DNA of 32,000 nucleotides from Pirellula staleyi DSM 6068 (GTDB taxonomy: Bacteria > Planctomycetota > Planctomycetia > Pirellulales > Pirellulaceae), in NCBI GenBank assembly GCA_000025185.1, contig CP001848.1:5400001-5432000 (forward strand), given 5' to 3'. Positions within the stretch are counted from its first letter, which is position 1. Each line of letters opens with the position of its first letter. Positions 4,717 through 25,477 of this stretch are shown piece by piece. The notes beneath the pieces are model-generated. The model did no database searches. It was not told the origin of the DNA and was given only the letters and a program-made list of their open reading frames with translations. The position numbers and the translations under genes were made by a program.

Positions 4717-7374
4717 TCACGCTGCTGGCATCGACTCGATCGCGGCGAGCAACTTCGCGCGGATTTCTTCGAGCCGCTTTTCGTCGACGATCTTTGCCCC
4801 GCCGAGCGTGGTGACATAAAAAACGTCGACCACCTGATCGAGATGGGTGCCGATCTTCGCGATGCTCACCGACAACTCGAGTTCGAAGAGCGCGCGGGTG
4901 ATGGTGTAAAGCAGACCCATGCGGTCGTAGGCAAACACGGCAACGATGGTGAACCGCTCGGCAGTGTTGTTGTCGAACGAAACGCGCGTCGGTAGATGCT
5001 GAGCGCGCGAATCAGTCGCTTGCGAACGGTCTTGCCAGGTTCGACGAAATGTCGGCTCCCCTTGGCTCGCGGTCGTGAGTGCTTGCTCGAGTGCGCGGCA
5101 CACCTCTTGGCGACGATTCTCGGGTGGCGCTCCGCTGTAATCGCGGTCCTGCACATAAAACCGGTCGAGCACCAAACCATCGGCAAGCGTGTTGATCTCG
5201 GCCGAGAGAATCTGCTGACGCTGGCTGCTGAGTGCGCCGGTGAGCTTATGAAAAATGCCGGGAGTAATCTGGTCGTACGTCCCGACGGCATACTCGACCA
5301 CATTGCGCTCGGCCTGATATTTCGACCACGCCACCGCATCGCTCGGCGAGAGCTTGCGCAATCGCTCGAGCTGCGAAACCACTTCAGCCGCATTCCCTGC
5401 GTAGAGCGAACTCGAGGGCAACACTTCAATCTGTTTTTTCAGCCAAGCGCGATCGGAAAAATTCGCGGTCGCAGCCAGCAGTTCGTCCATGCGTGCGCGC
5501 CGGCGCGCGGTCATGGCGGTTGCCGGAGATTCACTCGACAGCAATCGCAGCGTGTGATGATACAGATCGGTGAGCAGCTCTTTCTTCCAATCGTTCAGCA
5601 CTCCGGGCCCCACCGCCGCGAGATCGGCGAGCGTGAGTACGTAGAGCATTTGCAGCAGCTCGGGAGAGCCGACTTCGACGGCGAATTGCACCACCACTTC
5701 ATCGTCGCTGATGTCGTGCTGCTGCGCCAGATGCGACATGCGTAGGTGCTTGTGCACGAGCAGCATCGTCGCTTCGGTCTCGTCTTTCGAGAGTCCCAAG
5801 CGATGCCCGGTTTGTTCGGCGAGACGGCGTCCCACTTCGCTGTGATCTTCGACATAGCCTTTGCCAAGATCGTGCAGCAGCATTGCGAGATGGAGCACCC
5901 GTTTTTGTTTGATTCCGCGATACACCTCGCCTGGCACCCCCCGATCATCTTTCAGCTTGGTGAGGTACTCGACCGCGCGCAGCGTATGCTCGTCGACGGT
6001 GTAGCGATGATAGGCGTTGAACTGCAGCAGCGAACGTGTGTGCGAAACAGCGGGGATGATTTGCTCGAGGACGCGGAGTTCGTGCAAGCGGCGGAGCAGT
6101 TCGCCGAGTCGCGCGGGCTGCGACAGGAGCGAGAGAAAGAGCTTCGAGATATCTTCGCGCAGTGGTTCGCTCGGATCGGCCGGAGGCATTTGCGAAACCG
6201 CTTCGCGAATGGTGCGCCAGGTGCCATGATCGATCCGCTTGTTGTAGAGGTTCGCAAGATCGACGAGCCGCAGCACTTCGCCCAGGTCGCGGCGCATTTT
6301 CGCGAGCCCTTGCTTGGTGCATTTGATGGTTCGTGGTCCGACGCGAAAATCCCCTTCGAACTGATGCGTGAGGAGCGGTTCGAGCAGCCACCACAAAGGA
6401 AACTGCGGGCGGCAGAGCTCTGCGAAACTGTTGACGATTTCGCGCACGTTGCTGGTGTGCTGAAAATACTCGCGCATGAACTGCTCGACCGGAAGCAGTC
6501 CCTCTTGCGGAGGTCGATTCTGCAATTCAGCCAGTCGCAGCTGCTCGGTTTTGTCGAGCAAATCGGCCGCTTTTCCCTGAGAAAAATGGAGATCGTTACG
6601 CAGCCAGAGCAGGAAGTCGCGCGCGGCGCGTAGTTTTTTGAGATCGTCCTTGAGCAGGTGGCCCGCTTGCTCGAGCAACTTGGGTTCGCTCTCGCCGAAG
6701 CGGCAGAAGCCGAGCCAGCGGACGAGCTGAATGTCGCGCAGTCCACCGCGCGAGCGCTTGACGTTGGGCTCGAGCAGGAAGACCGTTTCGCCAAACTCGG
6801 TTCGCTCTTCGCGACGTGCGTTTTCGATTCCGGGGAGGAGTTTTTTCCAGCGACGTTTGACGTACCAACGAAACTGATTATCAAACCGCTCGAAGAGTTC
6901 GGCGTTCCCCGCAATGCAGCGACTCTCGCTCAGCGAAGTGAGGACAGTGGTGTCTTGCATTGCCATCGAGATGGCCTGCGACACCGTGCGAGCGCTGAAA
7001 CCGACATCGAGACCAAGATCGTAGAGATGCTGCGAGAATTGGCGAATGATCGGGAGCGCCGCCTCTTCGCTGCGAATCGAGTGCAGCAGCATGACGTCGA
7101 CATCGCTGTAGGGCGCCATCTCGCGACGACCAAATCCGCTATGCGCGACGACGCAAAAATGTTGCTTGATTTTCTCGCGCTGATCTTCCGGGGCGTCGGC
7201 AATCACTGCGTTGAATAGCTCGACCACCATCCCTTCGAGCAGGTCGGTGAAGTGAGCGCACACTTGCACGCCAGGCGTTCCGCTGTTGTGCTGCTTACGT
7301 AGCTTCTCGCGCCCTTTGGCAAGTTTCTCGCGAGCTTCGACAACGGCGGGATGAATGCGGAGCGTGGTGGGCAT
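4717..7374 (-). CDS. glnD: [protein-PII] uridylyltransferase / uridylyl-removing enzyme
   Basis: About 885 aa. Nucleotidyltransferase region (HSGFGRREMAPYSDVDVMLL), HD domain (HLAMLLHDLGKG) and two C-terminal ACT-like repeats (FTIVAVFAYDRMGLLYTITRAL...). It lies directly downstream of a P-II gene. ATG at 7374 is preferred over the TTG at 7425 used by the track. Confidence 0.85.
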   Translation of the reverse strand: MPTTLRIHPAVVEAREKLAKGREKLRKQHNSGTPGVQVCAHFTDLLEGMVVELFNAVIADAPEDQREKIKQHFCVVAHSGFGRREMAPYSDVDVMLLHSIRSEEAALPIIRQFSQHLYDLGLDVGFSARTVSQAISMAMQDTTVLTSLSESRCIAGNAELFERFDNQFRWYVKRRWKKLLPGIENARREERTEFGETVFLLEPNVKRSRGGLRDIQLVRWLGFCRFGESEPKLLEQAGHLLKDDLKKLRAARDFLLWLRNDLHFSQGKAADLLDKTEQLRLAELQNRPPQEGLLPVEQFMREYFQHTSNVREIVNSFAELCRPQFPLWWLLEPLLTHQFEGDFRVGPRTIKCTKQGLAKMRRDLGEVLRLVDLANLYNKRIDHGTWRTIREAVSQMPPADPSEPLREDISKLFLSLLSQPARLGELLRRLHELRVLEQIIPAVSHTRSLLQFNAYHRYTVDEHTLRAVEYLTKLKDDRGVPGEVYRGIKQKRVLHLAMLLHDLGKGYVEDHSEVGRRLAEQTGHRLGLSKDETEATMLLVHKHLRMSHLAQQHDISDDEVVVQFAVEVGSPELLQMLYVLTLADLAAVGPGVLNDWKKELLTDLYHHTLRLLSSESPATAMTARRRARMDELLAATANFSDRAWLKKQIEVLPSSSLYAGNAAEVVSQLERLRKLSPSDAVAWSKYQAERNVVEYAVGTYDQITPGIFHKLTGALSSQRQQILSAEINTLADGLVLDRFYVQDRDYSGAPPENRRQEVCRALEQALTTASQGEPTFRRTWQDRSQATDSRAQHLPTRVSFDNNTAERFTIVAVFAYDRMGLLYTITRALFELELSVSIAKIGTHLDQVVDVFYVTTLGGAKIVDEKRLEEIRAKLLAAIESMPAA

Positions 7375-7668
7375 GATCGGCAACTGGTTGCTGGGCGGCA
7401 AGCAAAGAAGGGAGGCCGCTCGCAATTCGGAAGTTCGATCGGCGGCTGGTACGAAAGTGCGATGGTTGCGCGATCAGCCTGTGACCACTCGATCATCGCC
7501 AACAAGTGCCGCAGCAGAAGGAGCAGCAGCACGGAGAGATTGCTTACGCGTCGCCAGGAGACCAATCGCCGCTGGGTTCTACTTCACCAAGCCGCCTGCC
7601 CGGAAGAGATCCCCAGCTTCGTACGTTTTGTTGGGTTCGTCGTACGTGCGGGTGGTTCGCCTTCAGGA

Positions 7669-8025
<357 letters not shown>

Positions 8026-8697
8026 TCAATATCCGAGGCCAACTTGCCTCTCGACCTTCGCGACAGCGCCCGCTGCAGAAGTTCGAGAAGTCCCATTGCC
8101 CCGGTTTGTTTCAATCCCCATCCGTTGGAGAGGCCCGCTCCCGGAGAGCTTTAGCCACGATCGAAAACCGATCCTACGACGTCGTCAAACCGACCCAGCC
8201 CGTCAACTTTGCCCAGGTCGATCGATTTGCCACCAGTTCCACGATTATACACGGCTGTACACTTCGCGAAGCGAACTCTCCGCTGCGGTGGCGGGCGGAG
8301 AAAGCGCGCCACCGGTGTGCAACGGCTGCAAACCTAATCGAGCATGCAATTTAACGATCCTACAAGCATACGCTATCGGACCGCTCCTTGCAGCGTCAGT
8401 CGGCCCGCAAAGCGCTTGGTTCTCCCAAAAACCGCAGGCCGCAGCGAACTAAATACACCCTACGGCCCCAATAAACCTCAAAACCATACTTATTATCGGC
8501 AGCTAGCACGCCTTTAACTGCAATCCAACCGATTACAGGCTTCGGCCGAAAGCCGCCACTTTGTTCTTGAGTATCGACCTGAGCCGGCCTCCTAGCAAAG
8601 AGGAAACCGGCACTAAACCACACTTAACGGCTCAGAATAAGGCCTAACCAGCGATGTGGCAGGCCGTTCTGAGCTGCCGATCGATGGCAGGAAGATA

Positions 8698-10179
8698 CTA
8701 CAGGAAGATGTAGCCTTCTTCGCCATGCTGGCTGAGGTCGAGACCTTGCAGTTCTTCGTCGCGACGGACACGCAGCCCCATCGTTAGGTCGAGCACTTTC
8801 AGCAGCACGAAGGTCACAATCGCCGAAACCACCCAGGTGACGAGGGTGGCGACAATCTGACCCACCAGCACCCGCGTTTCGCCATCGACCAGGCCGAGGG
8901 GCTTGCCGTTGCTGATGAGGGCGGTGTCGGCCACGTTGACCGTTGCGAACACGCCGGTCAGGATCGCGCCGAGCGTTCCACCCACGCCGTGAACCCCGAA
9001 GGCGTCGAGCGAGTCGTCGTAGCCAAAGGTGTGCTTCAGCTTGGTGCAAGCGAGGAAGCAGACAATGCCAGCGATGAAGCCCATCGCGAGGGCCGCCATC
9101 GGGCCAACAAAGCCAGCCGCTGGTGTAATGCAGACGAGTCCCGCCACTGCGCCCGAGCAAGCACCGAGCACGCTGGGCTTGCCACGCAGTACCCATTCCA
9201 TCAAGGCCCAGCTGAGCGTTCCGGCAGCAGCCGAGAAGTGCGTCACGGCAAACGCCGACGAAGTGAGGCCATCGCTGGCCAGTTCGCTACCGGCGTTGAA
9301 GCCGAACCATCCCACCCACAGCATCGCAGCGCCGAGCGTGGTGTAGGTGAGGTTGTGGGGAGGCATCGGATCACTGCCGTAGCCCAAGCGTTTGCCAATC
9401 ACCAGCGCACAAACAAGCGCCGAGACACCCGAGCTGATATGCACCACGGTGCCACCTGCAAAGTCGAGTGCGCCACCCATTAAGCCGGGCCCTGCCATCC
9501 AACCTTTGCCATCATCGTTGGGCTTGAGGAAGGCGAGCAAACCACCATCCCACACCATGTGGCATAGCGGGCAGTAGAGAATCGTGCCCCACAAAATCGA
9601 GAAGACCACCATCGTGCTGAACTTCATTCGTTCGGCAAAGGCACCGCAGATGAGGGCCGGGGTGATGATGAAAAACATCCCCTGGAAAAGCATGTGCGTC
9701 AGACGTGGAATCGCACCTTCCATCGGAGTTTCGACTTCGCCGGTTTCGGCATTGAAAGTCCGCTCGACGTTGCGCATCAGCACGTAGTCGAAGTTGCCGA
9801 TGTACGGGTTGTAGCCCTCTTCGCCGAGCGTTCCGCCGAACGAGAGCGAGTAGCCATAGAGAGCCCAAATCACCGTCATCAGCCCCATCAGGAAGATGCA
9901 TTGCATCATCACACCGAGGACATTCTTCTTACGGACCAAGCCGCTGTAGAACATCGCCAGCCCTGGTGCTGTCATAAAGAGCACGAGTGCTGCAGAAGTG
10001 AGCATCCAGGCGTTATGTCCGGCGAGCGCTGCACTCGACGCAGCACCTTCCACCGCCGTAACACGCTCCTCGATCGACGGCGGTGCCGACGATCCTTCTT
10101 GAGCCCATCCCACCGTTGCGCAGCCGAGCAGCAGCAGTGCGAGCCAACTACATTTCACCACCGATAGAGTACTAGACAT
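8698..10179 (-). CDS. amt: ammonium transporter (Amt family)
   Basis: About 493 aa and multi-TM. Amt signatures DFAGGTVVHISSG and GAILTGVFA. N-terminal signal peptide MSSTLSVVKCSWLALLLLGCATVGWAQ. ATG at 10179 with AAGGCG upstream is preferred over the TTG at 10197. Confidence 0.9.
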   Translation of the reverse strand: MSSTLSVVKCSWLALLLLGCATVGWAQEGSSAPPSIEERVTAVEGAASSAALAGHNAWMLTSAALVLFMTAPGLAMFYSGLVRKKNVLGVMMQCIFLMGLMTVIWALYGYSLSFGGTLGEEGYNPYIGNFDYVLMRNVERTFNAETGEVETPMEGAIPRLTHMLFQGMFFIITPALICGAFAERMKFSTMVVFSILWGTILYCPLCHMVWDGGLLAFLKPNDDGKGWMAGPGLMGGALDFAGGTVVHISSGVSALVCALVIGKRLGYGSDPMPPHNLTYTTLGAAMLWVGWFGFNAGSELASDGLTSSAFAVTHFSAAAGTLSWALMEWVLRGKPSVLGACSGAVAGLVCITPAAGFVGPMAALAMGFIAGIVCFLACTKLKHTFGYDDSLDAFGVHGVGGTLGAILTGVFATVNVADTALISNGKPLGLVDGETRVLVGQIVATLVTWVVSAIVTFVLLKVLDLTMGLRVRRDEELQGLDLSQHGEEGYIFL

Positions 10180-10494
10180 GAAAACGCCTTGAGCCAAAGA
10201 AGCCCGCGTCGAAACGCAATTTCTCGCGTCGAGCGCAAGCCAACAACGAACGAGACCTCGAGCCGCCTAGGTGGCCGCCTCGCCACACTCGATGTCTACT
10301 GAGCTGCGTCCGTCTGGCCATCGAAACGATACGATTGTTCGATGGTTGCCTGGTTCCAGACGAGCCAACTCTTGGGCAGATGTTGCGAAACAGACTACAA
10401 ACCACATGCCGGAAGAGCAAGTGACTCGGCGGGCTTACGGCTTTGTAATTCTGAAAAACTGGCCCAGCTTCGATTCGCTAGAGAGCTGCTGAAG

Positions 10495-11043: not shown

Positions 11044-11234
11044 TCCACTCCACCGTGGCACATAATGTGCCTAGCCGACTCGCCTGAACCACTCGAACGT
11101 CCCGTATAATACCGGGGAGTCGAGTCCCTCTCGATGCCCCGTCCAGGGCCGCATGCTTGCGTCGTGCAACCTGGCCCACCTCATCCACTCCCTCACCACC
11201 ACACTTCCTATCCACTTTCGTGAAGGATCTGCTG

Positions 11235-12317
11235 ATGAAAAATCGCCTACTTTCCTTGGTAACCCTCCTGGTCGGCCTGACCAGCGTCCATACGTCGGTC
11301 GTGGCGCAGCCTCCCGGAGTGGCGAGCAGCGGTCCTTCGATCGAGGCCAAAACACTCGGCAATATCAAGCAGCTGACCAGCGGGTTCGTGAAAGCGGGGG
11401 AAGGCTATTTCTCCCCCGATGGCAAGCAAATCGTCTATCAAGCTCAGCCGCTCGACTACCCGTTCTATCAAATCTTCCGGCAGTCGCTCGACGGTGGCCG
11501 CCCTTTGCAAATCAGCACCGGCCGGGGTCGCACCACCTGCAGCTATTTTTCGATCGACGGAACGAAGATCCTGTTCGCTTCGAGCCACCTCGATCCGGCC
11601 ATCGACGCCACCGAAGCGGCCGAGCGTAAGCAGCAGGAAGAAGACAAGAAGTCGGGGGTTCGTCGCCGCTACAAATGGGATTTCGATCCTTACACCGAGA
11701 TGTTCGAGGCTGATCTCGACGGGAAGATTTTGAAGCAGCTGACCAATGAGAAGGGGTACGACGCGGAAGGGGCCTACTCGAAGGATGGCAAACTGATCGC
11801 CTTTTGCAGCGACCGCGATGGGGATGCCGACCTCTATGTGATGAACAGCGACGGCACCGGCGTTCGCCAACTCACCAATGCCCCTGGCTACGATGGTGGT
11901 CCGTTCATTTCGCCCGATGGAAAGTGGGTGGTGTTCCGTAGCGATCGGAAAGAAAAAGATATGCTGCAGCTGTTTGTAATCGGCATCGATGGCAAAAATG
12001 AAACTCAGCTGACCGACACCAACGGTGTGAACTGGGGGCCATATTGGCACCCGAGCGAGCCGATCATCATTTGGTCGGGGGCAGACCATAGCGACCCAAC
12101 GGCACGTCCGAACTACGACCTGTGGGCTGCTCGCTACGAAATCGCCAGCGATGGGAAGTTCAAACTCGGCACCACGCAGCGCGTCACCGACTTCGCCGGG
12201 GCAGATGTTCTGCCGGTCTTCTCCCCTGACGGAAAAAAACTGATGTGGACCAGCACCCGCAGCGACGATCATAGCAGTCAGCTTTTCCTGGCCGACTTTC
12301 TCCTCGAGGTGAAATAG
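11235..12317 (+). CDS. TolB-like WD40/PD40 beta-propeller repeat protein, secreted
   Basis: Signal peptide MKNRLLSLVTLLVGLTSVHTSVVAQ after a GAAGGA RBS. Repeated PD40 motifs: SPDGKQIVYQA, SIDGTKILFAS, SKDGKLIAFCSDRDGDADLYVMNSDG, SPDGKWVVFRSDR, SPDGKKLMWTSTR. Confidence 0.75.
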   Translation: MKNRLLSLVTLLVGLTSVHTSVVAQPPGVASSGPSIEAKTLGNIKQLTSGFVKAGEGYFSPDGKQIVYQAQPLDYPFYQIFRQSLDGGRPLQISTGRGRTTCSYFSIDGTKILFASSHLDPAIDATEAAERKQQEEDKKSGVRRRYKWDFDPYTEMFEADLDGKILKQLTNEKGYDAEGAYSKDGKLIAFCSDRDGDADLYVMNSDGTGVRQLTNAPGYDGGPFISPDGKWVVFRSDRKEKDMLQLFVIGIDGKNETQLTDTNGVNWGPYWHPSEPIIIWSGADHSDPTARPNYDLWAARYEIASDGKFKLGTTQRVTDFAGADVLPVFSPDGKKLMWTSTRSDDHSSQLFLADFLLEVK

Positions 12318-12395
12318 CCTGCGCAAGCTGCCGTAGCAGTTGGCACCCCTGCGAGTGCCTTTGATTTCGCGTGCAATTCATGGAAGAATTTGGAT

Positions 12396-12839
12396 ATGGC
12401 CAAGCATCCCATAGCACGCTCGTGTGGCGTTCTCGTCCTCCGCGATAAGTTGAGCCAGAAGAAGAAAACCGTCGCGCGCGAGTTTCTGCTAATGCGCCAC
12501 AAAGATCGCTGGGATCTTCCCAAAGGGCATGTCGACCTGGGAGAGACCGACCACGACTGTGCGATGCGCGAACTTTGGGAAGAGACCGGAATAGAGCGCG
12601 ACGATATCGCTATCGATCCCACGTTTCGCTGGGAAACTCGCTACGACGTGAAGTGGGATGGCAAGCCGGTCGAGAAGACCCTCGTCATCTTTTTGGGACT
12701 GCTCACGCGTGAAGTAAAAATCAAACCGACCGAGCATGCTGGCTTCGAGTGGTTTCCCTGGAACCCGCCGCATGCCGTTCAAAAGCAAACGATCGACGCG
12801 CTGCTGGCAGCAGCGGAAAAGCATCTCGCGGCGCAATAG
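12396..12839 (+). CDS. NUDIX hydrolase
   Basis: Nudix box GHVDLGETDHDCAMRELWEETGI (G-x5-E-x7-REUxEExGU). ATG at 12396; the track start at 12390 is TTG. Convergent with the operon below. Confidence 0.8.
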   Translation: MAKHPIARSCGVLVLRDKLSQKKKTVAREFLLMRHKDRWDLPKGHVDLGETDHDCAMRELWEETGIERDDIAIDPTFRWETRYDVKWDGKPVEKTLVIFLGLLTREVKIKPTEHAGFEWFPWNPPHAVQKQTIDALLAAAEKHLAAQ

Positions 12840-12868: not shown

Positions 12869-13699
12869 TCAGGCCGCCCCGCGACCTCCGCCCACATTGC
12901 GGCAGCGTTTTGAGCCACAGCCATAGGTGGCGCAGCTTCCAAAATAGCTCCAGCAATCGCGATGATGGCTCGTTTTGCAGGCGGTGCATTGCACGAGCGC
13001 TCCGCTCAATTCGTCGCTGCAGACAGGGCAGGCGGTTTTCACGTCGACGAGCACACGCTTCTCGGAAATGATTTCGATTCCTGAATTGCACGCACCTAGC
13101 GCGGCTTCATAGAGGTCGGCAGCGGCGTCGATAAACGCACTCACAATCTCGGCGCTGCCACTGCCACGCGGCTTGGTGATCGCCAAAAGGCCGCGCATCC
13201 AAGTCACTTCGAGATCGCGATAGCTGTACATCGAGCTCCGTTCGTGAAGTTTGTACAGCCTCACAATCTGATGCTGCACCGAAGGCGTAAGCAACTCGCG
13301 AACCGCGCGCTCGTCTTCTCCGCTGATCATAAACAGGTCGTCGAACACAAAATTACCGACCTGGATATCCTGCATCCCCATCAGCTTGCCAAGCTTTTTC
13401 ATCGCATCTTCGACTTGCAACTGACACCGAAAACGAGCTTCGGGCCACGGCAAGCGAATCACCATGTAGTCGACCTTACCGCGGCGCACGTACTCCAGTT
13501 CACCTTGGGTCGAACCGACTTGAATGGAGAGCTTGGTATTGCTGAAAAAGCCCCCGGCGTAGAGAAGCTTGCCACGATACTTGCGCACCACCTGCTGCAG
13601 GTTGGCTTGCGCTTGCTGCTGGCTCAAGGTCGCGACCACAAAAATGATAATTATGACCGCAATGAAGAGAAAAAAGCCGAAGACTGGTCCGTCGTTCAT
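12869..13699 (-). CDS. membrane-anchored RING-like zinc-finger protein (putative E3), paralogue B
   Basis: 276 aa. N-terminal TM helix FGFFLFIAVIIIIFVVATL. C-terminal CPVCSDELSGALVQCTACKTSHHRDCWSYFGSCATYGCG follows C-x2-C-x10-C-x2-C-x4-H-x2-C-x6-C-x4-C, coded about 12917-13030. The ATG overlaps the upstream stop (ATGA). Confidence 0.7.
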   Translation of the reverse strand: MNDGPVFGFFLFIAVIIIIFVVATLSQQQAQANLQQVVRKYRGKLLYAGGFFSNTKLSIQVGSTQGELEYVRRGKVDYMVIRLPWPEARFRCQLQVEDAMKKLGKLMGMQDIQVGNFVFDDLFMISGEDERAVRELLTPSVQHQIVRLYKLHERSSMYSYRDLEVTWMRGLLAITKPRGSGSAEIVSAFIDAAADLYEAALGACNSGIEIISEKRVLVDVKTACPVCSDELSGALVQCTACKTSHHRDCWSYFGSCATYGCGSKRCRNVGGGRGAA

Positions 13700-14649
13700 G
13701 GCTGACTCTCCACGGGAGGCCCGGAGTCGCTATTTTCGGTCGGTTGTTCCTTCTGGGGCGACAGCTGCGCGATGCGGGGGGCGACCGCCCGGGTTTCTCC
13801 ACAGCCAAACGTGCTGCAAGCACCGGCATATTCCCAGCAGTCGCGATGATAGGGAGTTTTGCACTTCACGCAGCTCACGATGTCGGTCTCCAAAGTTTCT
13901 CCGCACACCACGCATCTTGCGCCGTCGATCACCACCGCATCGCCGGGCGCGACGAATTCAATCCCTTCACTCGAGGTGATGAGCAGCTGATCGTACAGCC
14001 CCACGGCAATGTCGGTGAACTCGATGAGATCGGTGGGGCGGGTCGACAACCATCGCTTGCGAATCGTGAGCATGGTGCGAGCGCAATTGACTTCCGCCCA
14101 CGAACGTTCAGGGAAACGGACCAGCTGCTCGATCGCCGCGCGCACCCCGGTGGAAAGGGACGCCGTGGCATCGCTGGGAGTTCGGGCAATCGTCCGAAAC
14201 TGCTGGTCAAACTCTGGGTCACCCGAGAGGACTTCGAGCAGCGGTGGGGGCAACTCCACATGCGCATGGCTGGCATGTCGCGGAAGGACATCGAGACGCG
14301 GATAAACGCGTGGCAACGTCATGCTGATCTCGAGGACCGGCAGCGAATCGCTCGTGCCATAAGCGGCAACCGTGACACTGACCCAGCTCTCGCCATAGCG
14401 AAAGGTGGTGCGCGGGGCCGAGCCCCAGCTCGACGGCTGAAAGTTACCCCGGCGATTCTCGGCCAAGCGCGCCAGCTGCGCAGGCCAAGGGGCTTTCGAC
14501 GTCCCGACCGCCAGATAGATTGCGAGCCAGACGGCGGTGGCGATCAGGATCAAACCAGCCAGTAAGGCGCACGTCACAGCAACTTCCTTCGGACGGTTGC
14601 TCTTCGAGGAGCCCGACGCACGTTCCTCGGCCAGGGAGCAAGCTGCCAC
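13696..14649 (-). CDS. membrane-anchored RING-like zinc-finger protein (putative E3), paralogue A
   Basis: 317 aa. TM helix CALLAGLILIATAVWLAIYLAV. C-terminal CVVCGETLETDIVSCVKCKTPYHRDCWEYAGACSTFGCG has ligand spacing identical to paralogue B, coded about 13801-13914. GTG start 15 nt after the upstream stop. Confidence 0.7.
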   Translation of the reverse strand: MAACSLAEERASGSSKSNRPKEVAVTCALLAGLILIATAVWLAIYLAVGTSKAPWPAQLARLAENRRGNFQPSSWGSAPRTTFRYGESWVSVTVAAYGTSDSLPVLEISMTLPRVYPRLDVLPRHASHAHVELPPPLLEVLSGDPEFDQQFRTIARTPSDATASLSTGVRAAIEQLVRFPERSWAEVNCARTMLTIRKRWLSTRPTDLIEFTDIAVGLYDQLLITSSEGIEFVAPGDAVVIDGARCVVCGETLETDIVSCVKCKTPYHRDCWEYAGACSTFGCGETRAVAPRIAQLSPQKEQPTENSDSGPPVESQP

Positions 14650-14664
14650 CTCGCCAAACTGCCG

Positions 14665-15348
14665 TTATTCAGGACCAATGTACAGCACATCGCCATCGCC
14701 ACTGGCCGCAGGACGATTCGCGGGGCGGATCGCGCGTCGCTCGGGGAGTTTGGGAGAGGGAGTATTCTCGTCGATGAACATCACTTCGCTGCTCGCAGCA
14801 CCACCGAGGGTCGTCGGCTGACCAGCGACGCGGCTGTAGCGGACCACGTTGCTCGAGACCACTTGGGTTTGCCCCACCAGCGGGCGATTGTCGAGCGGCA
14901 AGGTGTAAGTCGTTTGCTTCTCGAGCCAGTTGCGGGCGGTGAAGTCGACAACGCGATCTTCGTTGACGTAAGCAAGTCGAATCGCGTCCCACAGACGTTC
15001 GCAAACAACATCGAGCGACAGGGCAGGGGACCAATTGAGCCCTAGATCTCCCAGGTTTACGAATCCGCTGAACGAAACATTCGGATGCACAATCGGCGTA
15101 AGCCAACGGACATCAGGCGGACTCTCGGGATAGGAAAATGGCAAACGGATTTCCACCTCGTGCAGTTCGCTGATCGCCATTTCGCTCGACATCGACGTGC
15201 CGCGCGCGAGCCCCTTGCCACGAAAGCGAAGCATGAACCGTTCGACCGGTTCTCCGGTGGCTTCCACTTCAAACACGCGGCTCTGCTCGGCCAGCTCACG
15301 AAGCTTTTTCACATCGCCCGTAATTCGGCTCGTTCGATCTTCGCTCAC
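14665..15348 (-). CDS. E2-fold (UBC-like) protein lacking the catalytic Cys, UEV-like
   Basis: 227 aa and collinear with the E2 at 18779-19546. HPN falls at residues 88-90 in both proteins. Here the sequence is IVHPNVSFSGFVNLG, with Asn98 (AAC, 15055-15057) where the paralogue has Cys98. GTG start overlaps the upstream stop (GTGA). Confidence 0.75.
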   Translation of the reverse strand: MSEDRTSRITGDVKKLRELAEQSRVFEVEATGEPVERFMLRFRGKGLARGTSMSSEMAISELHEVEIRLPFSYPESPPDVRWLTPIVHPNVSFSGFVNLGDLGLNWSPALSLDVVCERLWDAIRLAYVNEDRVVDFTARNWLEKQTTYTLPLDNRPLVGQTQVVSSNVVRYSRVAGQPTTLGGAASSEVMFIDENTPSPKLPERRAIRPANRPAASGDGDVLYIGPE

Positions 15349-16907
15349 GCATCACCTCCTTCACGCTCACTCGAGGTCGAGCGATTTTCCGTACCTGCCA
15401 CTGCATCCTTCGCACTCGGAGGCGAAGACTTACTCAGCACGTTCTTACTCGGTTTCGTAGCAGTGCTCGACTTGTCGTCCGAAATCGTTGCCACCGATTC
15501 AGTATGACCACTCGAGCCCCCGTTTGGCGAGCGGCGGACGAAAAAGGTGACAATCGCAGCCAAAAGCCCCCCACCACCGAGCAACGACAACCCGATGATG
15601 GCCTGCTTTCGGCTGAACAGCGTCGTCTCGGCTTCTCCCTCCGTTTCGGCAGGTTTCTCAGCCGCTGCTACGGTGGCAGGTGTCGTGCTGGCTTTCAGCT
15701 CCCGGAGGGCGATTTCGAGTTCCGTTTTTTTCGTTTCCAGCTGCTCCACGGTGTCGGCGAGGCTGGCGATTCGTTCCTCGCTCTCGACGCGGAGCGCTTC
15801 GAGCTTCTCGACCGTCGCCTGGTTACTCGCTTGCAGTTCGCTGATCATCACTCGCTGCGACTCGCTGATCTCGCGCAGCGATTCGGTTTGATCGTACTTG
15901 GCTTGCAGCCGCTCGACAAAACCGGGCTCGCTGCCGCGCAGCTCTCGCATCATGTCGTCGTAGAACTCGGCGCGAGCCTCGTCGCGCGATTGGCTGCGAC
16001 TTTGCTTTACCGTTTCATCGACACGCGCCGTGAGCGCTTGAGTAACGTCGATCAAATCTTTGCGAGTGACAGCGGGCGCCGTATTCGCGGGAGCTGTCTC
16101 CGCCACGGGAGGCGAGGCGATCTTCCACACCAGAATCGCCAACAGAACCAGCTGCGCAAACATACCGACCTGCCCAGCGAGCTGCTGCCAAACTGGTGGA
16201 GGGGGAGGAGGAGGCGTGGTATGCAAATGGACGTGCGAAGTTCCGGAAATCTGCTTCGATGTGCTGCTCATCAGCTGTATTTCCTCGGGGGCGGTGAGGG
16301 AAGCAACAAACTGCTCCAGCTCTTCCGCGCGGTGCCTGCTCGTCATCAAAAAAAAGCCGCCGGTCTGCTGCGTACGTGGCTTGCGACCGGTGGTCCACTG
16401 AAAGAACCCACGATCGCGCCGACAGGGATCGATCACGAGCGCCACATCGAGCGGCTTATTAAAAAAATTGTCGCAGATAAAGAGATCGAGCCCCGATAAA
16501 AACACACCCCAATCGGGATGCGTGTGATACCAGCCCACCATCTGTAGTTCGGCGGGAAATTCCTCGCGCGTCCGCGTGATCTGCTCCCACGTGTCGTGCG
16601 TGAATTTGAAACTTCCACGGGTGCTTTCGTAGTGCGCAGCGCGGAGACTATCGGTCACCATCACGAACGGCTGTTGCTGCTCGTCTTCACAAAAATAGCC
16701 GAGCATCACGCCACCCAGCTCGACCGTTTTGTCGCTCACGGCATGCAGTTCCATGTCGCGCGCCGCATCGAGGTCGACGTAGATGGGGAGCTCACCTTCG
16801 CGCAGCTTCCCCACGGCCTGCACTGTCAGTTGCCGATTCTGATCGGGACGCAAACGCCGAGCGTGCGAATCTTCTTTCAGCTCACCAAAATCGATGTCGG
16901 AGCTCAC
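15345..16907 (-). CDS. JAB/MPN+ (JAMM) metalloprotease with two TM helices flanking a coiled coil
   Basis: 520 aa. N-terminal JAB domain: E63 in TVELGG and GWYHTHPDWGVFLSGLD (H-x-H-x7-S-x2-D, about 16485-16526). A P7 run precedes TM1 (about aa 244-264). A heptad-like Glu/Leu/Gln-rich segment covers about aa 285-405. TM2 is IIGLSLLGGGGLLAAIVTFFV, followed by RR and a Ser-rich tail. GTG start overlaps the E1 stop. Confidence 0.8.
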   Translation of the reverse strand: MSSDIDFGELKEDSHARRLRPDQNRQLTVQAVGKLREGELPIYVDLDAARDMELHAVSDKTVELGGVMLGYFCEDEQQQPFVMVTDSLRAAHYESTRGSFKFTHDTWEQITRTREEFPAELQMVGWYHTHPDWGVFLSGLDLFICDNFFNKPLDVALVIDPCRRDRGFFQWTTGRKPRTQQTGGFFLMTSRHRAEELEQFVASLTAPEEIQLMSSTSKQISGTSHVHLHTTPPPPPPPVWQQLAGQVGMFAQLVLLAILVWKIASPPVAETAPANTAPAVTRKDLIDVTQALTARVDETVKQSRSQSRDEARAEFYDDMMRELRGSEPGFVERLQAKYDQTESLREISESQRVMISELQASNQATVEKLEALRVESEERIASLADTVEQLETKKTELEIALRELKASTTPATVAAAEKPAETEGEAETTLFSRKQAIIGLSLLGGGGLLAAIVTFFVRRSPNGGSSGHTESVATISDDKSSTATKPSKNVLSKSSPPSAKDAVAGTENRSTSSEREGGDA

Positions 16908-18121
16908 TGAGCAGGCTCCTTTTTCTCGCGCGACGCAGCATCGGCCGGGAGTTTCACGAGCACACGATCGCGATCGGCAGCGAGCAAAAAGAACCCTTCC
17001 TCGCCCGTTGCTTCGCGCGTGATGCGAACAATGTCGTACAGAGGAATCCCGAGCGTCTTCAGGGGCCGATCGGACCAGGGGCTCGACTCGTCAATCGCAT
17101 GCGTGCGATCGACCGACATTACTTCGCGGCATTCGCAAACGGCATCGCGAAACGTGACGAGTGGACTCGCGCGCACGATCTCGCGGACCGCTCCGCACTG
17201 GGCGCACTTCATTCCCGTGACCAAATCGCGATCGAGGTGCAACGTGAGTGGACCTTCCCCCGGCAGATGCGCGGCCGCTGCCGTAAACAGATCTTTCGCC
17301 GTCGCAGTTTCCGACGACAGCGGAAGGTCGATCGCAGTGGGATAAGTGTCGTGACTCAGGCAGTCTTCTTTGCGCTGATAGCGCGTGGTGTAGAACTGAT
17401 TGGTGAGACCGCTATAGACGTACGCTTCGCCCCCTTTGACCGGCAAACCGTGCATCACCTTGAGCGCTTCCTGCACTTCAATCGCGGCCATAATCGACGC
17501 ACTGGTCGGCGCTGTCGGCACTTTACCAGCAAGCAAATCCTCGCGCGGCAAAAGAGGGCAGCTATAGCGCAAGTTGATCAGTTTGTAGTCGTTTTCGGTC
17601 ATCCCGCATTCGTAGCAGGGGCTCTCGGGTGGCGTAAACACCTTCACCACGCCGCTGATCTCTTGAATGCCGGCGTCGATCCACGGGGTGCTCGTTTTCC
17701 AGCAGCAGCGATTGACCCACAGCCTCGCCTCGCGATTGTCGAGGCAGCCAATCGCCACGTCGATATCGCGAAAGAGCCCCAGCCCCAGTTCCGTCATCAC
17801 ATTTCCGCGAATGGGTGTGATGACCACATCGGGATTGATCTCGCTGGCCATTTCCGCAGCAACATGCGCTTTACTTTGTCCTTCGTGACGAGCACGGAAC
17901 AGCACGCTGCGTGTGAGGTTCGAGTTTTCGATCGTGTCGAGGTCGATCACAATCAGATGGCCCACCCCCACCATCACCAGGTTCTTAATCACTTCGTTAC
18001 CGAGCGCCCCAGCGCCAACCACCAGCACTCGCGAACGCTGCAGCTTCGCTTGATCCCACCAGCCAATGAGTCGCAGGCGACTATAGCGGTCGTCTTGATC
18101 GACAATCAGTGGCTCGGCCAT
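16904..18121 (-). CDS. E1-like ubiquitin-activating enzyme (ThiF/MoeB/HesA adenylation superfamily)
   Basis: 405 aa. RYSRLRLIGWWDQAKL, VLVVGAGALGNEVIKNL (GxGxxG), VIDLDTIENSNLTRSVLF, CLDNREAR, CYEC (C169/C172), RYSCPLL (C188), CAQC (C306/C309) and CEC. AGGAGAG RBS 9 nt before the ATG. Confidence 0.85.
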   Translation of the reverse strand: MAEPLIVDQDDRYSRLRLIGWWDQAKLQRSRVLVVGAGALGNEVIKNLVMVGVGHLIVIDLDTIENSNLTRSVLFRARHEGQSKAHVAAEMASEINPDVVITPIRGNVMTELGLGLFRDIDVAIGCLDNREARLWVNRCCWKTSTPWIDAGIQEISGVVKVFTPPESPCYECGMTENDYKLINLRYSCPLLPREDLLAGKVPTAPTSASIMAAIEVQEALKVMHGLPVKGGEAYVYSGLTNQFYTTRYQRKEDCLSHDTYPTAIDLPLSSETATAKDLFTAAAAHLPGEGPLTLHLDRDLVTGMKCAQCGAVREIVRASPLVTFRDAVCECREVMSVDRTHAIDESSPWSDRPLKTLGIPLYDIVRITREATGEEGFFLLAADRDRVLVKLPADAASREKKEPAQ

Positions 18122-18182: not shown

Positions 18183-18719
18183 TCAGGCCAAACGGCCGGT
18201 CACAAAACCACAAGGCTCGATCTGCCGATCACGCCAGTGAAAGAACCCGAGTTCCTTGCGGCGCGGATCGACCACCATAGCGACATGCCACGGCTGGGGG
18301 AAAAAATTGTGGTGGATGAACTTGTCGTAGCTCGACAAAAAAATGCCGAAGTCGGGATGCGTATGATGCCAGCCGACGATGGAAAGTCCGGGATATTTCA
18401 GCTCGGCTTCGCGATGAAGCTCGGCCCATGTATCGTGCGTAAAGACAAGCGATGCTGCCCGCGACTTGGCTTCCGCAGCGGGATGAAAATGCTTGATCAC
18501 GACCAGCATCGGCTTGGTGCCATAGACGCCGCCGAGCAAGAACCCGCCACGCTCGCGACGCAAATCTTGCTCGGAAAACGCGATGATTTCATCGAGCACA
18601 TTCTGGGGCAACACAATCGCCGCGCTCGACAAATAGACCGTCCCGACCGATCGCGGAGACTGCAAATCTCCGAGAGAAAACGTGTCGGTAGTCGGTACGC
18701 TGGGCATGGGTTGTAGCAA
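18183..18719 (-). CDS. JAB/MPN+ (JAMM) metalloprotease, soluble paralogue
   Basis: 178 aa (TTG at 18719; alternative ATG at 18707). E in RRERGG and GWHHTHPDFGIFLSSYD (H-x-H-x7-S-x2-D). Strongly similar to the N-terminal domain of 15345-16907 (FTHDTW..., NFF, DP.R...GFF.W). Confidence 0.8.
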   Translation of the reverse strand: MLQPMPSVPTTDTFSLGDLQSPRSVGTVYLSSAAIVLPQNVLDEIIAFSEQDLRRERGGFLLGGVYGTKPMLVVIKHFHPAAEAKSRAASLVFTHDTWAELHREAELKYPGLSIVGWHHTHPDFGIFLSSYDKFIHHNFFPQPWHVAMVVDPRRKELGFFHWRDRQIEPCGFVTGRLA

Positions 18720-18778: not shown

Positions 18779-19546
18779 CTAAACGAACTCAATCCCGTCA
18801 TCAGCTGGCGGCGACGGAGGACGCGACGACTCTGCGCGGCGCGGCGGCGGAACAGGAGGTCGCGTTGGCGCTGCGCGACGTGGCGGGAACGGCCCCGCCA
18901 CCGGCGCTGGGCCCGCTGGCTCAGCATCGTCGATGAAGAACAGTCCCTCTTCCTCGGCTGCAGGGACAATCTCGGCCTGCACGGCAGAAGAGGTCGGAGC
19001 CGCTGCGGCGGGTCGCTGCGCGGTCGATGGAGGAGGCTGATGGGTGGCAGCTTCGCGCGAGGCAACCAGATCGCGCAGCGGACGCGGATCGAGTGGCAAG
19101 ATGCCGGGACCTTGCGATTTCGACCAGAGAGCCGCTTCGCGATTGTAAGGGCTGTTGGGGTCGTAGTTCTCGTAGCGAATCATGTCCCACAGCATCGTGC
19201 AGAGCTCGTCGAGCATCAAACTTGGGACCCAGTGCTTTCCATATCCTCCCAGGCAGACAATGCCGCCAGCCGAGATATTGGGGTGAAACACCGGGGATTT
19301 CCACGAGAGTTCGGGCATCGAGCGGGGGTATGAAGCCCCCAGACGCACATGCACTTCGTGAACTGCCAGCAGACGGGGCGCTTGTGCAGGGTCGGGACGA
19401 TACGCCCCACGACCATGAAATCGCAGCACGTAATATTCCGGCGGATTGCCGGTCGCTTCAAAGCGAAAAATGCTGCTGTCAGCGGCCAGTTGTGTTAGCA
19501 AGCGATGATCGCTAGCCAGTCGACGTTGACGAGGAGATTCGCGCAC
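18779..19546 (-). CDS. E2-like ubiquitin-conjugating enzyme with catalytic Cys
   Basis: 255 aa. UBC-core signature YPRSMPELSWKSPVFHPNISAGGIVCLG (HPN then Cys98, TGC at 19253-19255). A roughly 95-aa Pro/Ala-rich tail ends DDGIEFV. GTG start with GGAGGGAG RBS. Confidence 0.85.
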   Translation of the reverse strand: MRESPRQRRLASDHRLLTQLAADSSIFRFEATGNPPEYYVLRFHGRGAYRPDPAQAPRLLAVHEVHVRLGASYPRSMPELSWKSPVFHPNISAGGIVCLGGYGKHWVPSLMLDELCTMLWDMIRYENYDPNSPYNREAALWSKSQGPGILPLDPRPLRDLVASREAATHQPPPSTAQRPAAAAPTSSAVQAEIVPAAEEEGLFFIDDAEPAGPAPVAGPFPPRRAAPTRPPVPPPRRAESSRPPSPPADDGIEFV

Positions 19547-19657: not shown

Positions 19658-19945
19658 TTAACCCGCGACGATCTCGGGATAAACAATCAAATGATGTCCA
19701 TCCTGAACACCGGCAGCGGGAAGCGTTTGATCTTCCTGCAAACGGCGGCCACCCTCTTTATGATCGAGGCTGTAGCTCATCGGCTGACCATCAGGGCCCA
19801 TCACCGGCAGATTCATCTTGGTGATGATGTTGGGCAGAATGCGTTTGGCAGTCACGGTGTCGGCGATCACCGCCTCGACACTCTTGGCGCCAGTCTGATC
19901 GAGAAACGTAACTCGTGTACCTTTTCGCTCCGTTTGTTCACTCAC
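19658..19945 (-). CDS. ubiquitin-like (beta-grasp) small protein ending in Gly
   Basis: 95 aa. GTG start preceded by AAGGGAG. The C-terminal half GRRLQEDQTLPAAGVQDGHHLIVYPEIVAG-stop parallels ubiquitin [30 protein letters not shown]. First gene of the operon. The fold assignment is inferred, not computed. Confidence 0.7.
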   Translation of the reverse strand: MSEQTERKGTRVTFLDQTGAKSVEAVIADTVTAKRILPNIITKMNLPVMGPDGQPMSYSLDHKEGGRRLQEDQTLPAAGVQDGHHLIVYPEIVAG

Positions 19946-20212: not shown

Positions 20213-21682
20213 TTACGACAAGATGCCGTGAATCACATGGCCATGCACATCGGTCAAGCGCATGTCGCGTCCCGAAAAGCGGAACGTCAGCTTCGTGTGA
20301 TCGACCCCCAGCAGATGCAGCATGGTGGCGTGCAAATCGTGCATTTCCACACGATTTTCGACCACTTTATAACCATAGTCATCGGAGCTGCCGTAGATCG
20401 TCCCCCCCTTGATCCCTGCGCCAGCCATCCAAATCGAATAGGCGTAAGGATTATGGTCGCGGCCATTCGACCCTTGAGCAAACGGGGTTCGGCCAAACTC
20501 GCCAGCCCATACCACCAGCGTGCTCTCGAGCAAACCACGGCGTTCGAGATCGGCCAGCAGCGCAGCGATCGGCTGATCGACAGCCCGCGCGTTGTCCTCG
20601 TGCCCTTGCTTCAAGTTCCCATGCTGATCCCAGCGATCGTGCCCCACATTGGGACAAGTGAGCTCAATAAAACGCACCCCTTCTTCCACGAGCCGCCGAG
20701 CCAAAATGCATTGTCGCGCAAACGACGCCGTCCCTTTGTGCTTCTGATCGATGCCGTAGAGCGCCTGCGTTTCGGCTGTCTCGCCCGAGTAGTCAGTCAG
20801 CCGCGGCACGACCGACTGCATCCGATAGGCCAATTCGTAGTTGGCAATTGCCGACTCCACCGCCGACGAACGGGTCGTATCTTGCGACTCGATCTGCTGA
20901 ATGAAATCGAGCTTATTCCGCTGCAGCTGCGTGTTGGGTTCGATCGGAATCACATTCGCCACCGGTGGATTCGAGGCAGCGAAGATCGAACCTTGGTAGG
21001 TCGCCGGCAAAAATCCGCTGTTGAAATTATCGAGCCCGCCCGGTGGCACGAGTCCACCATTCACGACCACGAATCCCGGCAGATCGCGGCATTCGCTCCC
21101 CAGGCCATACGTCGCCCAAGCTCCCATGCTGGGACGTCCTTGAATGCCAGTCCCGGTGTGCAAAAAGTAGTTCGCCGAGGTGTGCTCGGGAAACTGACTT
21201 GTCATCGAACGCACCACCGCCAGTTTGTCGGCATGCTTGGCAACTTCAGGAAAGAGCTCGCTAATCTCGATGCCACTTTGGCCATGCCTGGCAAACTTCC
21301 AGGGACTCCCGAGGGTCGCGCCGTTGTTGTTGAACTGCGTGGGCTCCATCTTCAGCCCGAACGGCTTCCCGTTCTCGGCTGTTAAGCGTGGCTTGGGATC
21401 GAACGTATCGACCTGACTCGGTCCACCATCCATGTAGAGGAAAATGACACTCTTGGCCTTCGCCGGAAAGTCGACTCCACGAAGTTCATTCGAAGGAGGT
21501 GCCAGATCGGCTGCCGCCAGTGGCAGCGCCAAATCCCCTTGGGCCACGAGCGCCGAAAGAGCCAGTGCGCCAAAGCCACCCGCCACTTGCTCGAGCATCG
21601 CGCGCCGCGATAGGGCCCGAGGACGCATCCGCTGGCAAGGGAACTCGCTCGACTTCGAAGGCTGGTGATGTTGTGGCGACAT
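20213..21682 (-). CDS. DUF1501 (sulfatase-like) domain protein with Tat signal
   Basis: 489 aa. Twin-arginine leader LSRRAMLEQVAGGFGALALSAL. DUF1501-typical blocks FLYMDGGPSQVDTFDPKP and GRDHNP. It is paired downstream of a DUF1549/DUF1553 gene, as is usual in planctomycetes. Alternative ATG at 21628. Confidence 0.85.
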   Translation of the reverse strand: MSPQHHQPSKSSEFPCQRMRPRALSRRAMLEQVAGGFGALALSALVAQGDLALPLAAADLAPPSNELRGVDFPAKAKSVIFLYMDGGPSQVDTFDPKPRLTAENGKPFGLKMEPTQFNNNGATLGSPWKFARHGQSGIEISELFPEVAKHADKLAVVRSMTSQFPEHTSANYFLHTGTGIQGRPSMGAWATYGLGSECRDLPGFVVVNGGLVPPGGLDNFNSGFLPATYQGSIFAASNPPVANVIPIEPNTQLQRNKLDFIQQIESQDTTRSSAVESAIANYELAYRMQSVVPRLTDYSGETAETQALYGIDQKHKGTASFARQCILARRLVEEGVRFIELTCPNVGHDRWDQHGNLKQGHEDNARAVDQPIAALLADLERRGLLESTLVVWAGEFGRTPFAQGSNGRDHNPYAYSIWMAGAGIKGGTIYGSSDDYGYKVVENRVEMHDLHATMLHLLGVDHTKLTFRFSGRDMRLTDVHGHVIHGILS

Positions 21683-21746
21683 AGCGTTTGTTTCTAGCGT
21701 TCTACGATTGTTTTACGGAAACAGGCCCGAGGAACCGGCGCGCCAA

Positions 21747-25166: not shown

Positions 25167-25477
25167 CGCCAGACAATCCTTTGGTGAAATTCGCTGCTGC
25201 CCGGAAGGTGGGAACACGAAACGTGGGCAGTGGCTTGTCGTAGGTGCCAAGCGGCACATGCATCAGGTTAGCTGGATGCCATGCGCGGAGCAAGAGAAAG
25301 GGGGCTCACTGGGCGTCAAACGCCCCTTGTGGCCGCTGAATTCCCCAAGAGCTTTGGGCTAAGAGATGTCAAGAAACCCAACAAGGTGCCAGAGAGCGAA
25401 CTCTCCGACACCTTGCGAGTCGTGCTGACGGTTAGGCAGCGGCGGTGCGGCTGAGTCGAACTTCGGGAGAAGTCCGA

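Follow-up and report, generated by a model that had tools for sequence, protein, structure and literature searches.

Pirellula staleyi DSM 6068, a member of the Planctomycetota, carries two adjacent genes whose products each end in a RING-like zinc finger, and the question raised by this locus is whether a bacterium uses such proteins as ligases (E3s) of a ubiquitin-like modification system. The genes, called RING-A and RING-B here, lie on the minus strand of a 32,000-nucleotide stretch of the chromosome (GenBank CP001848.1, positions 5,400,001 to 5,432,000; this whole stretch is referred to as the window, and the positions in Table 1 are counted from its first nucleotide). An earlier reading of the bare sequence (hereafter, the original prediction) had described them as tandem, translationally coupled membrane-anchored proteins and had proposed that they act as E3s on substrates at the membrane. 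In our judgement, RING-A and RING-B probably (at roughly 0.72) serve as the E3s of a complete, chromosomally inherited ubiquitin-like protein (Ubl) conjugation system of the Planctomycetota. They are most likely cytoplasm-facing, membrane-tethered RING E3s. The analysis establishes which genes are present, the families they belong to, the conservation of the zinc ligands and of the operon, a predicted fold and topology, and the division into two clades; binding of zinc and of the conjugating enzyme (E2), catalysis, an association of the two proteins, their substrates and their physiological role are inferred.

A RING gene pair at the end of a Ubl operon

The two RING genes form the 3′ end of a cluster of eight co-directional minus-strand genes in the order Ubl-E2a-JABa-E1-JABb-E2b-RING-A-RING-B (Table 1). 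Because they end an operon that also encodes a Ubl, an activating enzyme (E1), E2 proteins and two JAB peptidases, the E3 reading is much stronger than the original prediction could know. No other E3 candidate was found in the operon. Neighbouring genes overlap by four bases at three junctions (E1/JABb, JABb/E2b and RING-A/RING-B). Scanning the operon for promoters and terminators was uninformative: it gave no promoter-like sites, and terminator-like sites numbered 13 where 8.4 ± 3.2 would be expected.

In a ranking of PDB matches, the E1 sequence came nearer to the eukaryotic enzymes UBA7, UBA1 and SAE2 than to ThiF or MoeB, and the best PDB relatives of E2a were canonical eukaryotic E2s. The catalytic cysteine of E2a is kept in 38 of 38 orthologues. 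E2b is 41% identical to E2a, keeps the HPN and WSPAL motifs and has Ubc13 as its best PDB relative; its orthologues keep the cysteine in 0 of 36 cases and mostly have asparagine there. JABb shows hydrophobic segments at residues 242-269 and 435-458, flanking a highly charged, coiled-coil-like stretch, with a Ser/Thr-rich tail beyond them, and is probably a deconjugase tethered to the membrane. Of 39 Ubl orthologues, 24 end naturally with the C-terminal VAG. The 2011 paper of Burroughs, Iyer and Aravind reportedly proposed that YukD-like Ubls are conjugated by such systems. Some Ubl orthologues carry one to five extra residues past the terminal glycine, which would need trimming.

As predicted, two minus-strand open reading frames (ORFs) with an ATGA overlap are present. 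Here the stop codon of RING-A and the start codon of RING-B share bases, which implies translational coupling of the two genes; the same overlap recurs in the closest relative, locus L001. RING-B is 100% identical to the NCBI protein Psta_4142, which is annotated as hypothetical and already has a PF14446 tag in the database. Where RING-A starts is somewhat uncertain, as the database has a version of 293 aa (99% identity across 92% of RING-A) that would be consistent with an internal start. The longer form is favoured by conservation of the transmembrane (TM) region, since 89% of the clade to which RING-A belongs (clade A, see below) keep Cys27, a residue within this region. The two proteins are indeed paralogues with one layout, as had been proposed. 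Each has one strongly hydrophobic N-terminal segment forming a predicted TM helix, followed by an alpha/beta domain some 170-200 aa long, a linker reading GIE (GIEF in RING-A) and a C4HC3 finger; their alignment (32% identity, 157 aa, E 6e-22) spans the middle domain, the linker and the finger.

The operon context is conserved. A scan of one genome per species gave 513 relatives, and 76 loci, almost all from Planctomycetota and chiefly from Pirellulaceae, were kept for listing and scanned by tblastn with the operon proteins of the window. Of these, 44 have at least 7 kb of sequence upstream of the first RING gene, and E1 lies upstream of the RING gene in 34 of the 44. The form Ubl-E2-JAB-E1-JAB-E2-RING was found in 11 of the 34 loci, the same form with two RING genes in 15 and with three RING genes in 3, and about 5 have a reduced form, Ubl-E2-E1-JAB-RING. 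Counted otherwise, 18 of the 34 complete operons carry at least two RING genes and 16 carry an A-type copy only. The operon of L001, whose RING-B is 57% identical, consists of the identical eight genes.

The zinc finger

The two finger sequences quoted in the original prediction occur verbatim in the window (Table 1), and the spacing given there, C-x2-C-x10-C-x2-C-x4-H-x2-C-W-x5-C-x4-C, is correct; the corresponding ligand spacing, 2-10-2-4-2-6-4, is exact in 57 of 60 family members. The fingers had been called identical, which holds for the ligand spacing but not for the sequences, which differ. The Prok-RING families of Pfam, to which the prediction had pointed, do cover both proteins: Prok-RING_1 (PF14446) scored 48.4 bits for RING-A and 47.5 bits for RING-B against a gathering cutoff of 29.1 (E about 1e-12), and it was matched by all 60 aligned relatives. 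The alignment of these 60 sequences showed seven ligand cysteines, Trp250 and Phe119 to be invariant and the ligand histidine to be at least 90% conserved. Each of 112 genome-derived relatives, whichever its clade, keeps the full set of ligands (C, C, C, C, H, C, C, C) as well as Trp250. When the whole library was searched by HMMER with RING-B as query, 2,494 cluster representatives matched at E ≤1e-3, and 571 did so at E ≤1e-10; most are 260-290 aa in length and matched over their full length. A review describes prokaryotic RINGs as C4HC3 fingers whose last two ligands are spaced further apart (PMC11354881), which is what both fingers show.

Two other readings of the motif were rejected. A looser eight-ligand pattern with variable spacers matched the six-frame translation of the 32-kb window only twice, at the two fingers, and this uniqueness together with the Prok-RING_1 scores rules out a chance motif. 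A simple zinc ribbon is ruled out, as weak zinc-ribbon matches were found in only 2 of the 60 members.

Structure prediction also pointed to a RING-like fold. In a finger-only AlphaFold2 model of RING-B, the ligand core has a predicted local distance difference test score (pLDDT) of 93-96 and consists of a beta-hairpin followed by a helix (residues 247-253) across H-x2-C-W-x-Y. A Foldseek search of the PDB with this model placed RING and U-box E3 domains first (Ring1B, Rad18, RNF8, cIAP2, IDOL, BIRC7 and TRIM21), with ZZ, PHD and SP-RING fingers ranking below them. In a cross-brace, ligands 1, 2, 5 and 6 form one site and ligands 3, 4, 7 and 8 the other, with the central helix after ligands 5 and 6; the fold match of the zinc-free model suggests such binuclear ligand pairing. 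The position two residues after the first cysteine (C1+2), the canonical E2-contact site of RING E3s, is valine or isoleucine in 112 of 112 sequences. In the RING protein of the archaeon Caldiarchaeum, Ile30 at the same position is essential for activity (PMC5654768).

Several results weigh against the reading of the two proteins as E3 components of the system. Within the finger, the proline that follows ligand 7 in canonical RINGs is never present in the 112 relatives, which have Ser, Ala, Thr or Cys there, and the linchpin position after ligand 8 (C8+1) is mostly glycine (45 of 57 clade B and 21 of 55 clade A sequences), with arginine in 17 of the 55 clade A sequences. All 55 of the 55 clade A sequences place a basic residue between ligands 3 and 4 (C-V-K-C in RING-A), versus 17 of 57 in clade B, and this residue may substitute for the linchpin in clade A. 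The E-values of the Foldseek matches are weak (best 0.014, with probabilities up to 0.99), as expected for a finger with only about 45 ordered residues. The C4HC3 ligand order comes with PHD-like spacing, and PHD is the next-best Pfam family. At the level of the operon, no proteasome or AAA+ unfoldase gene was found in it, and nine loci, L010 and L015 among them, have RING genes without any Ubl-system gene within about 10 kb. Finally, the 16 complete operons with an A copy only, and the retention of all ligands in both copies, speak against an obligate pair; since these operons have one RING gene, RING-B appears dispensable for the core reaction.

These finger properties raise the alternative that the finger is a PHD-like or other non-catalytic module with a peptide, the Ubl or a lipid head-group as its ligand, in which case the proteins would be membrane receptors or substrates of the Ubl system. 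The PHD family (PF00628) gave 18.3 and 19.7 bits for the two fingers and matched 23 of the 60 members at E ≤0.01, the sole match, a weak one, in a PDB sequence search with RING-B was the PHD finger of KAP-1, and C1_1 also gave a weak score; together with the C4HC3 order, the PHD-type spacing and the unconserved proline and linchpin positions, these results speak for such a module. However, the PHD scores lie below the gathering threshold of 24, the C1 and C3HC4 RING models of Pfam are likewise below threshold for both proteins, and the structure search ranks RING/U-box E3s above PHD and ZZ. The E2-contact valine or isoleucine is invariant, RING genes directly follow E2-family genes in most loci, and the operon offers no other E3. 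We therefore regard a non-catalytic module as improbable and prefer the E3 reading. Membership in the RINGv family (the RING-CH of MARCH proteins), which the original prediction had also considered, did not hold, with no Pfam match at E ≤0.1.

Membrane topology and the middle domain

A TM helix (Kyte-Doolittle peak >1.6) is present in 95% of the 112 relatives. In RING-B it is predicted to be N-out/C-in, with 0 Lys or Arg residues before and 4 after the segment, and in the 112 relatives the mean number of Lys and Arg residues is 1.1 in the 20 residues before the helix versus 4.1 after it. By the positive-inside rule, the middle domain and the finger are thus placed in the cytoplasm, in agreement with the cytoplasmic finger of the original prediction. 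E1, E2 and Ubl have no signal sequence and are predicted to be cytoplasmic, on the same side as the finger. A membrane anchor also agrees with the Pfam description of Prok-RING_1, in which bacterial members reportedly carry a TM helix.

The AlphaFold2 model of full-length RING-B (mean pLDDT 88.2) consists of a helix (residues 4-40), an alpha/beta domain (44-205), a floppy linker (210-219) and the finger. The resemblance of the middle domain to DUF3137, guessed in the original prediction, was borne out in part. RING-B matched DUF3137 (PF11335) marginally, at 26.7 bits against a gathering cutoff of 26.1 and over part of the model (30-92 of 139). At E ≤0.01 the domain was matched by 42 of 60 family members, but RING-A had no match in the Pfam search. 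Similarly, the two proteins had been said to share a block around Phe-Asp, and their alignment does pair GDPEFDQQF with GNFVFDDLF. The block is well conserved in clade B, where Phe119 reaches 100% and Asp120 93%, but not in clade A, where the corresponding values are 67% and 40%.

The middle-domain model of RING-B (residues 44-205) weakly resembles TtfA (6t84, E 1.5e-4), an accessory factor of mycobacterial MmpL3, as well as 6w6l_7 (a 290-residue chain of the ribosome-TMCO1 translocon, E 4e-4) and 2plg. From its chain length we take 6w6l_7 to be, probably, CCDC47. Both TtfA and CCDC47 are single-pass membrane-tethered proteins. The likeness of the models may indicate a shared membrane-proximal scaffold fold, and we treat it as a lead only; a literature search on DUF3137 and on a link between CCDC47 and TtfA found nothing relevant.

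Inheritance of the system

A second alternative concerns the operon as a whole, which could be an anti-phage defence system like Bil or type II CBASS (cyclic-oligonucleotide-based anti-phage signalling system), with the membrane RINGs steering the Ubl onto components of entering or assembling phages at the envelope. Uncharacterised bacterial operons with Ubl, E1, E2, RING and deubiquitinase (DUB) genes were predicted to be antiviral in a published commentary (PMC10557695), and such operons have been called mobile selfish elements (PMC3417536). In P. staleyi, the JAB and E1 proteins weakly match the PADLOC models for JAB, E1-E2 and Bil, and the copy number of B-type genes differs between genomes. 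On the other hand, the PADLOC models were not matched by RING-A, RING-B, E2a, E2b or the Ubl, and no member of the RING family occurs in 2.9 million viral contigs or in 72,556 plasmids. The flanks of the operon in the window are housekeeping genes (Sua5, GlnD, Amt and cobalamin adenosyltransferase) with even GC content, and a flanking pair of NUDIX and PD40 genes is kept in 14 of 61 related loci, down to about 25% RING identity. The near-confinement of the family to one phylum suggests vertical inheritance rather than a mobile island. A defence role is thus very improbable in our judgement, and a mobile or defence-island origin was rejected on the PADLOC results, the viral and plasmid absence, the even-GC housekeeping setting and the kept flank.

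RING clusters were also seen apart from the enzymes. In three loci, L010 (Anatilimnocola sp. NA78, a complete genome), L015 and L002, the 9-10 kb around an A-B-B cluster are devoid of E1, E2, JAB and Ubl genes. Such genomes may encode the enzymes elsewhere, or else the RING proteins act without them.

Two clades of RING proteins

A neighbour-joining tree of 113 RING proteins separated two clades. Clade A contains 48 of 50 operon-first copies, including RING-A, and clade B contains all 27 second and third copies, including RING-B, plus most solo genes. Single-RING operons are almost all A-type, and the A-then-B(-B) order is kept even in clusters without E1 and E2. Five metagenome-assembled genomes with a single-A operon have a solo B copy on another contig. 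A and B are two old clades with a fixed order, A being the core copy and B the accessory copy.

The clades differ in what they conserve, although the ligands and the C1+2 valine or isoleucine are kept in both. Besides the basic residue between ligands 3 and 4, clade A alone has an invariant Gln221 and a near-invariant Glu and Pro just past the finger, and clade B has a near-invariant G-x-x-D-I-x-x-G-x-x-x-F-D block in the middle domain. This asymmetry would fit A as the E2-engaging subunit and B as an accessory subunit, and a heteromeric, possibly heterodimeric, A+B E3 is plausible but unproven. RING-less paralogues, with a TM helix and a DUF3137-like domain but no finger, were found between RING genes in locus L002 (7343-8044, plus strand) and as the second gene of the L003 cluster (about 8505-9110). 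Their presence inside clusters suggests assembly via the TM or middle domains.

RING-A and RING-B may instead be independent, redundant E3s with different substrates that do not associate, their tandem arrangement reflecting local duplication only. Such independence would account for the retention of all ligands and the E2-contact residue in both proteins, for the 16 of 34 operons with A alone, and for B-type copies that occur solo or in two or three copies. It is harder to reconcile with the A-then-B order, which is kept over deep divergence and also in clusters detached from E1 and E2, with the ATGA overlap in both the window and L001, with the RING-less paralogues suggestive of assembly, and with the asymmetric conservation of the basic residue at the second zinc site. 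We consider independent E3s somewhat unlikely.

Proposed mechanism

On the reading that RING-A and RING-B are E3 components, the following scheme can be proposed. The YukD-like Ubl (ending in VAG) would be adenylated and thioesterified by the E1 and handed to the catalytic cysteine of E2a. RING-A, held in the cytoplasmic membrane by one N-terminal helix, would expose its DUF3137-like domain and finger to the cytoplasm, where the finger would recruit the E2a~Ubl conjugate and the middle domain would pick membrane-proximal targets. RING-B, an old paralogue whose middle-domain motif is more conserved but which lacks the clade A basic residue at the second zinc site, could serve as an accessory or alternative substrate-selecting subunit, possibly in a heteromer with RING-A. 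The cysteine-less E2b may act as a partner of E2a in the manner of a ubiquitin E2 variant (UEV), and maturing the Ubl and reversing conjugation would fall to the pair of JAB peptidases, of which one is probably membrane-bound.

A more specific version may be imagined, in which the operon encodes a vertically inherited housekeeping machine that tags membrane or membrane-proximal proteins, as a bacterial counterpart of endoplasmic-reticulum-associated degradation (ERAD) or of MARCH ligases. In it, catalytic RING-A, with a "linchpin" at the second zinc site, and substrate-selecting RING-B would form a heteromeric E3 served by an E2/pseudo-E2 pair, in the manner of Ubc13 and its UEV, and opposed by a membrane JAB eraser. 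We put this version forward as a speculation that is unlikely to be right in its entirety. If true, it would mean that bacteria evolved heteromeric RINGs, UEV partners and membrane-tethered E3/DUB pairs either before eukaryotes or separately from them.

Comparison with known systems

To our knowledge, complete cascades of Ubl, E1, E2, RING and DUB are very rare outside eukaryotes. In the literature searched, the only prokaryotic RING-containing cascade found to have been reconstituted in vitro is the archaeal one of Caldiarchaeum subterraneum, Ub-E1-E2-srfp(RING)-Rpn11 (Hennell James et al. 2017, PMC5654768). It resembles the P. staleyi operon in being compact and in combining a single modifier with an E1 and an E2 of eukaryotic type, a RING E3 and a peptidase of the JAMM family. 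Its Ile30 after the first cysteine pair, which is needed for activity (PMC5654768), has its equivalent in the invariant valine or isoleucine of the P. staleyi family. However, the Caldiarchaeum RING is a small, soluble RING-H2 protein (C3H2C3) with an Arg linchpin, R69 (PMC5654768), whereas RING-A and RING-B are membrane-anchored, have an extra domain of 170-200 aa, use C4HC3 ligands and mostly lack a linchpin. Moreover, the P. staleyi modifier is YukD-like and not a true ubiquitin, and E2, JAB and RING are each duplicated.

Eukaryotic systems offer several likenesses. MARCH/RING-CH proteins, Doa10 and Hrd1 are cytoplasm-facing, membrane-tethered RINGs that work on membrane-proximal substrates, and RING-CH uses C4HC3 ligands. 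The likeness is an analogy and not membership, since RING-A and RING-B have a single N-terminal TM helix and a C-terminal finger instead of an N-terminal finger and multiple TM helices, and their ligand spacing is different. Ubc13-Mms2/Uev1a, which works with the dimeric RING E3s RNF8 and TRAF6, parallels the encoding of an active E2 beside a cysteine-less E2 paralogue that is nearest to Ubc13, although E2b is a recent paralogue of E2a and not a UEV orthologue. The two paralogous RINGs of P. staleyi, with their asymmetric conservation, also recall the heterodimers BRCA1/BARD1 and RING1B/BMI1, but differ from them in that both keep all zinc ligands. The top Foldseek matches of the finger include the Ring1B/Bmi1 and RNF8-Ubc13/Mms2 complexes. 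Among bacterial systems, BilABCD and Cap2/Cap3 of type II CBASS also conjugate Ubls with E1, E2 and JAB proteins, to which the weak, generic PADLOC similarity of the P. staleyi JAB and E1 proteins corresponds. These systems are mobile defence cassettes without a RING E3, while the P. staleyi locus looks vertically inherited.

The RING pair and its operon are already known as a predicted system from comparative genomics in 2011 and from Pfam, and the interpretation in the original prediction is essentially the published one. According to a secondary source (PMC4197634), Burroughs, Iyer and Aravind 2011 (Mol Biosyst 7:2261) described ubiquitylation operons of a related type from Planctomycetes, Actinobacteria and Acidobacteria. 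RING-A and RING-B are no different in kind from Prok-RING_1 and these operons. We count the finding as already known because planctomycete operons of this kind were reported in 2011 and the family is in Pfam. The A/B split with its fixed order, the cysteine-less second E2, the clade-specific basic residue, the membrane JAB, the DUF3137/TtfA-like domain and the apparently vertical, phylum-wide spread over about 500 species genomes may or may not be new. A 2023 preprint describes RING-containing bacterial Ubl operons as still uncharacterised (PMC10557695), and no experimental work on planctomycete RING/Ubl systems was found in the literature library searched. The planctomycete system is eukaryote-like, experimentally untouched and tractable in cultivable bacteria, and it combines features usually deemed eukaryotic: a putative membrane-tethered RING E3, a second RING paralogue, a cysteine-less E2 and a probably membrane-bound deconjugase. 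Its characterisation would show what role a RING E3 has in a cell when neither a proteasome nor an unfoldase is encoded in the operon, and would bear on how the eukaryotic ubiquitin system was assembled.

Table 1 Features of the Ubl operon and its surroundings in the window
Feature	Position	Strand	Description
Ubl	19658-19945	-	95 aa; YukD-like beta-grasp; PF08817 61.4 bits; ends ...YPEIVAG
E2a	18779-19546	-	predicted active UBC-fold E2, HPNISAGGIVCLG; HPN...C intact; Pro/Ala-rich tail; PF00179 45.2 bits
JABa	18183-18719	-	178 aa; soluble MPN/JAMM peptidase; PF01398/PF14464; no TM segment found
E1	16904-18121	-	405 aa; ThiF-family adenylating enzyme; PF00899 189 bits
JABb	15345-16907	-	520 aa; MPN/JAMM; HxHx7Sx2D intact in translation; PF01398/PF14464
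E2b	14665-15348	-	UBC-fold pseudo-E2 (UEV-like); Asn for catalytic Cys, HPNVSFSGFVNLG; PF00179 44.9 bits
RING-A	13696-14649	-	317 aa; GTG start; operon-core (A) clade; single-pass membrane protein
RING-A TM segment	14503-14580	-	about aa 24-49, VTCALLAGLILIATAVWLAIYLAVG; Kyte-Doolittle maximum 2.45 (19-aa window)
RING-A finger	13801-13914	-	C246-C283, CVVCGETLETDIVSCVKCKTPYHRDCWEYAGACSTFGC; regex match, Pfam stretch 243-281, ligand conservation
ATGA overlap	13696-13699	-	RING-A stop with RING-B start; gap -4
RING-B (Psta_4142)	12869-13699	-	276 aa; ATG start; accessory (B) clade paralogue
RING-B TM segment	13622-13684	-	about aa 6-26, VFGFFLFIAVIIIIFVVATLS; Kyte-Doolittle maximum 3.14; predicted N-out/C-in
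RING-B DUF3137-like core	13214-13402	-	aa 100-162; with the G-x-x-D-I-x-x-G-x-x-x-F-D block
RING-B finger	12917-13030	-	C224-C261, CPVCSDELSGALVQCTACKTSHHRDCWSYFGSCATYGC; regex match, AlphaFold, Foldseek
PSCyt1/PSCyt2/PSD1 and DUF1501 genes	20213-25259	-	1170 aa and 489 aa
NUDIX gene	12390-12839	+	
PD40 gene	11157-12317	+	PD40/TolB-like beta-propeller
GlnD-Amt neighbourhood	4717-10197	-	GlnD uridylyltransferase and Amt ammonium transporter

Flanking genes

The PD40 and NUDIX genes converge on the 3′ end of the operon. That the pair also comes after the RING genes in 14 of 61 related loci is probably a matter of conserved synteny and not of a functional link. Genes for a PSCyt1/PSCyt2/PSD1 protein and a DUF1501 protein, a pair typical of planctomycetes, lie immediately upstream of Ubl both here and in L001. 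The GlnD-Amt neighbourhood, which concerns nitrogen regulation and shows a housekeeping chromosomal setting, is also common to the window and L001.

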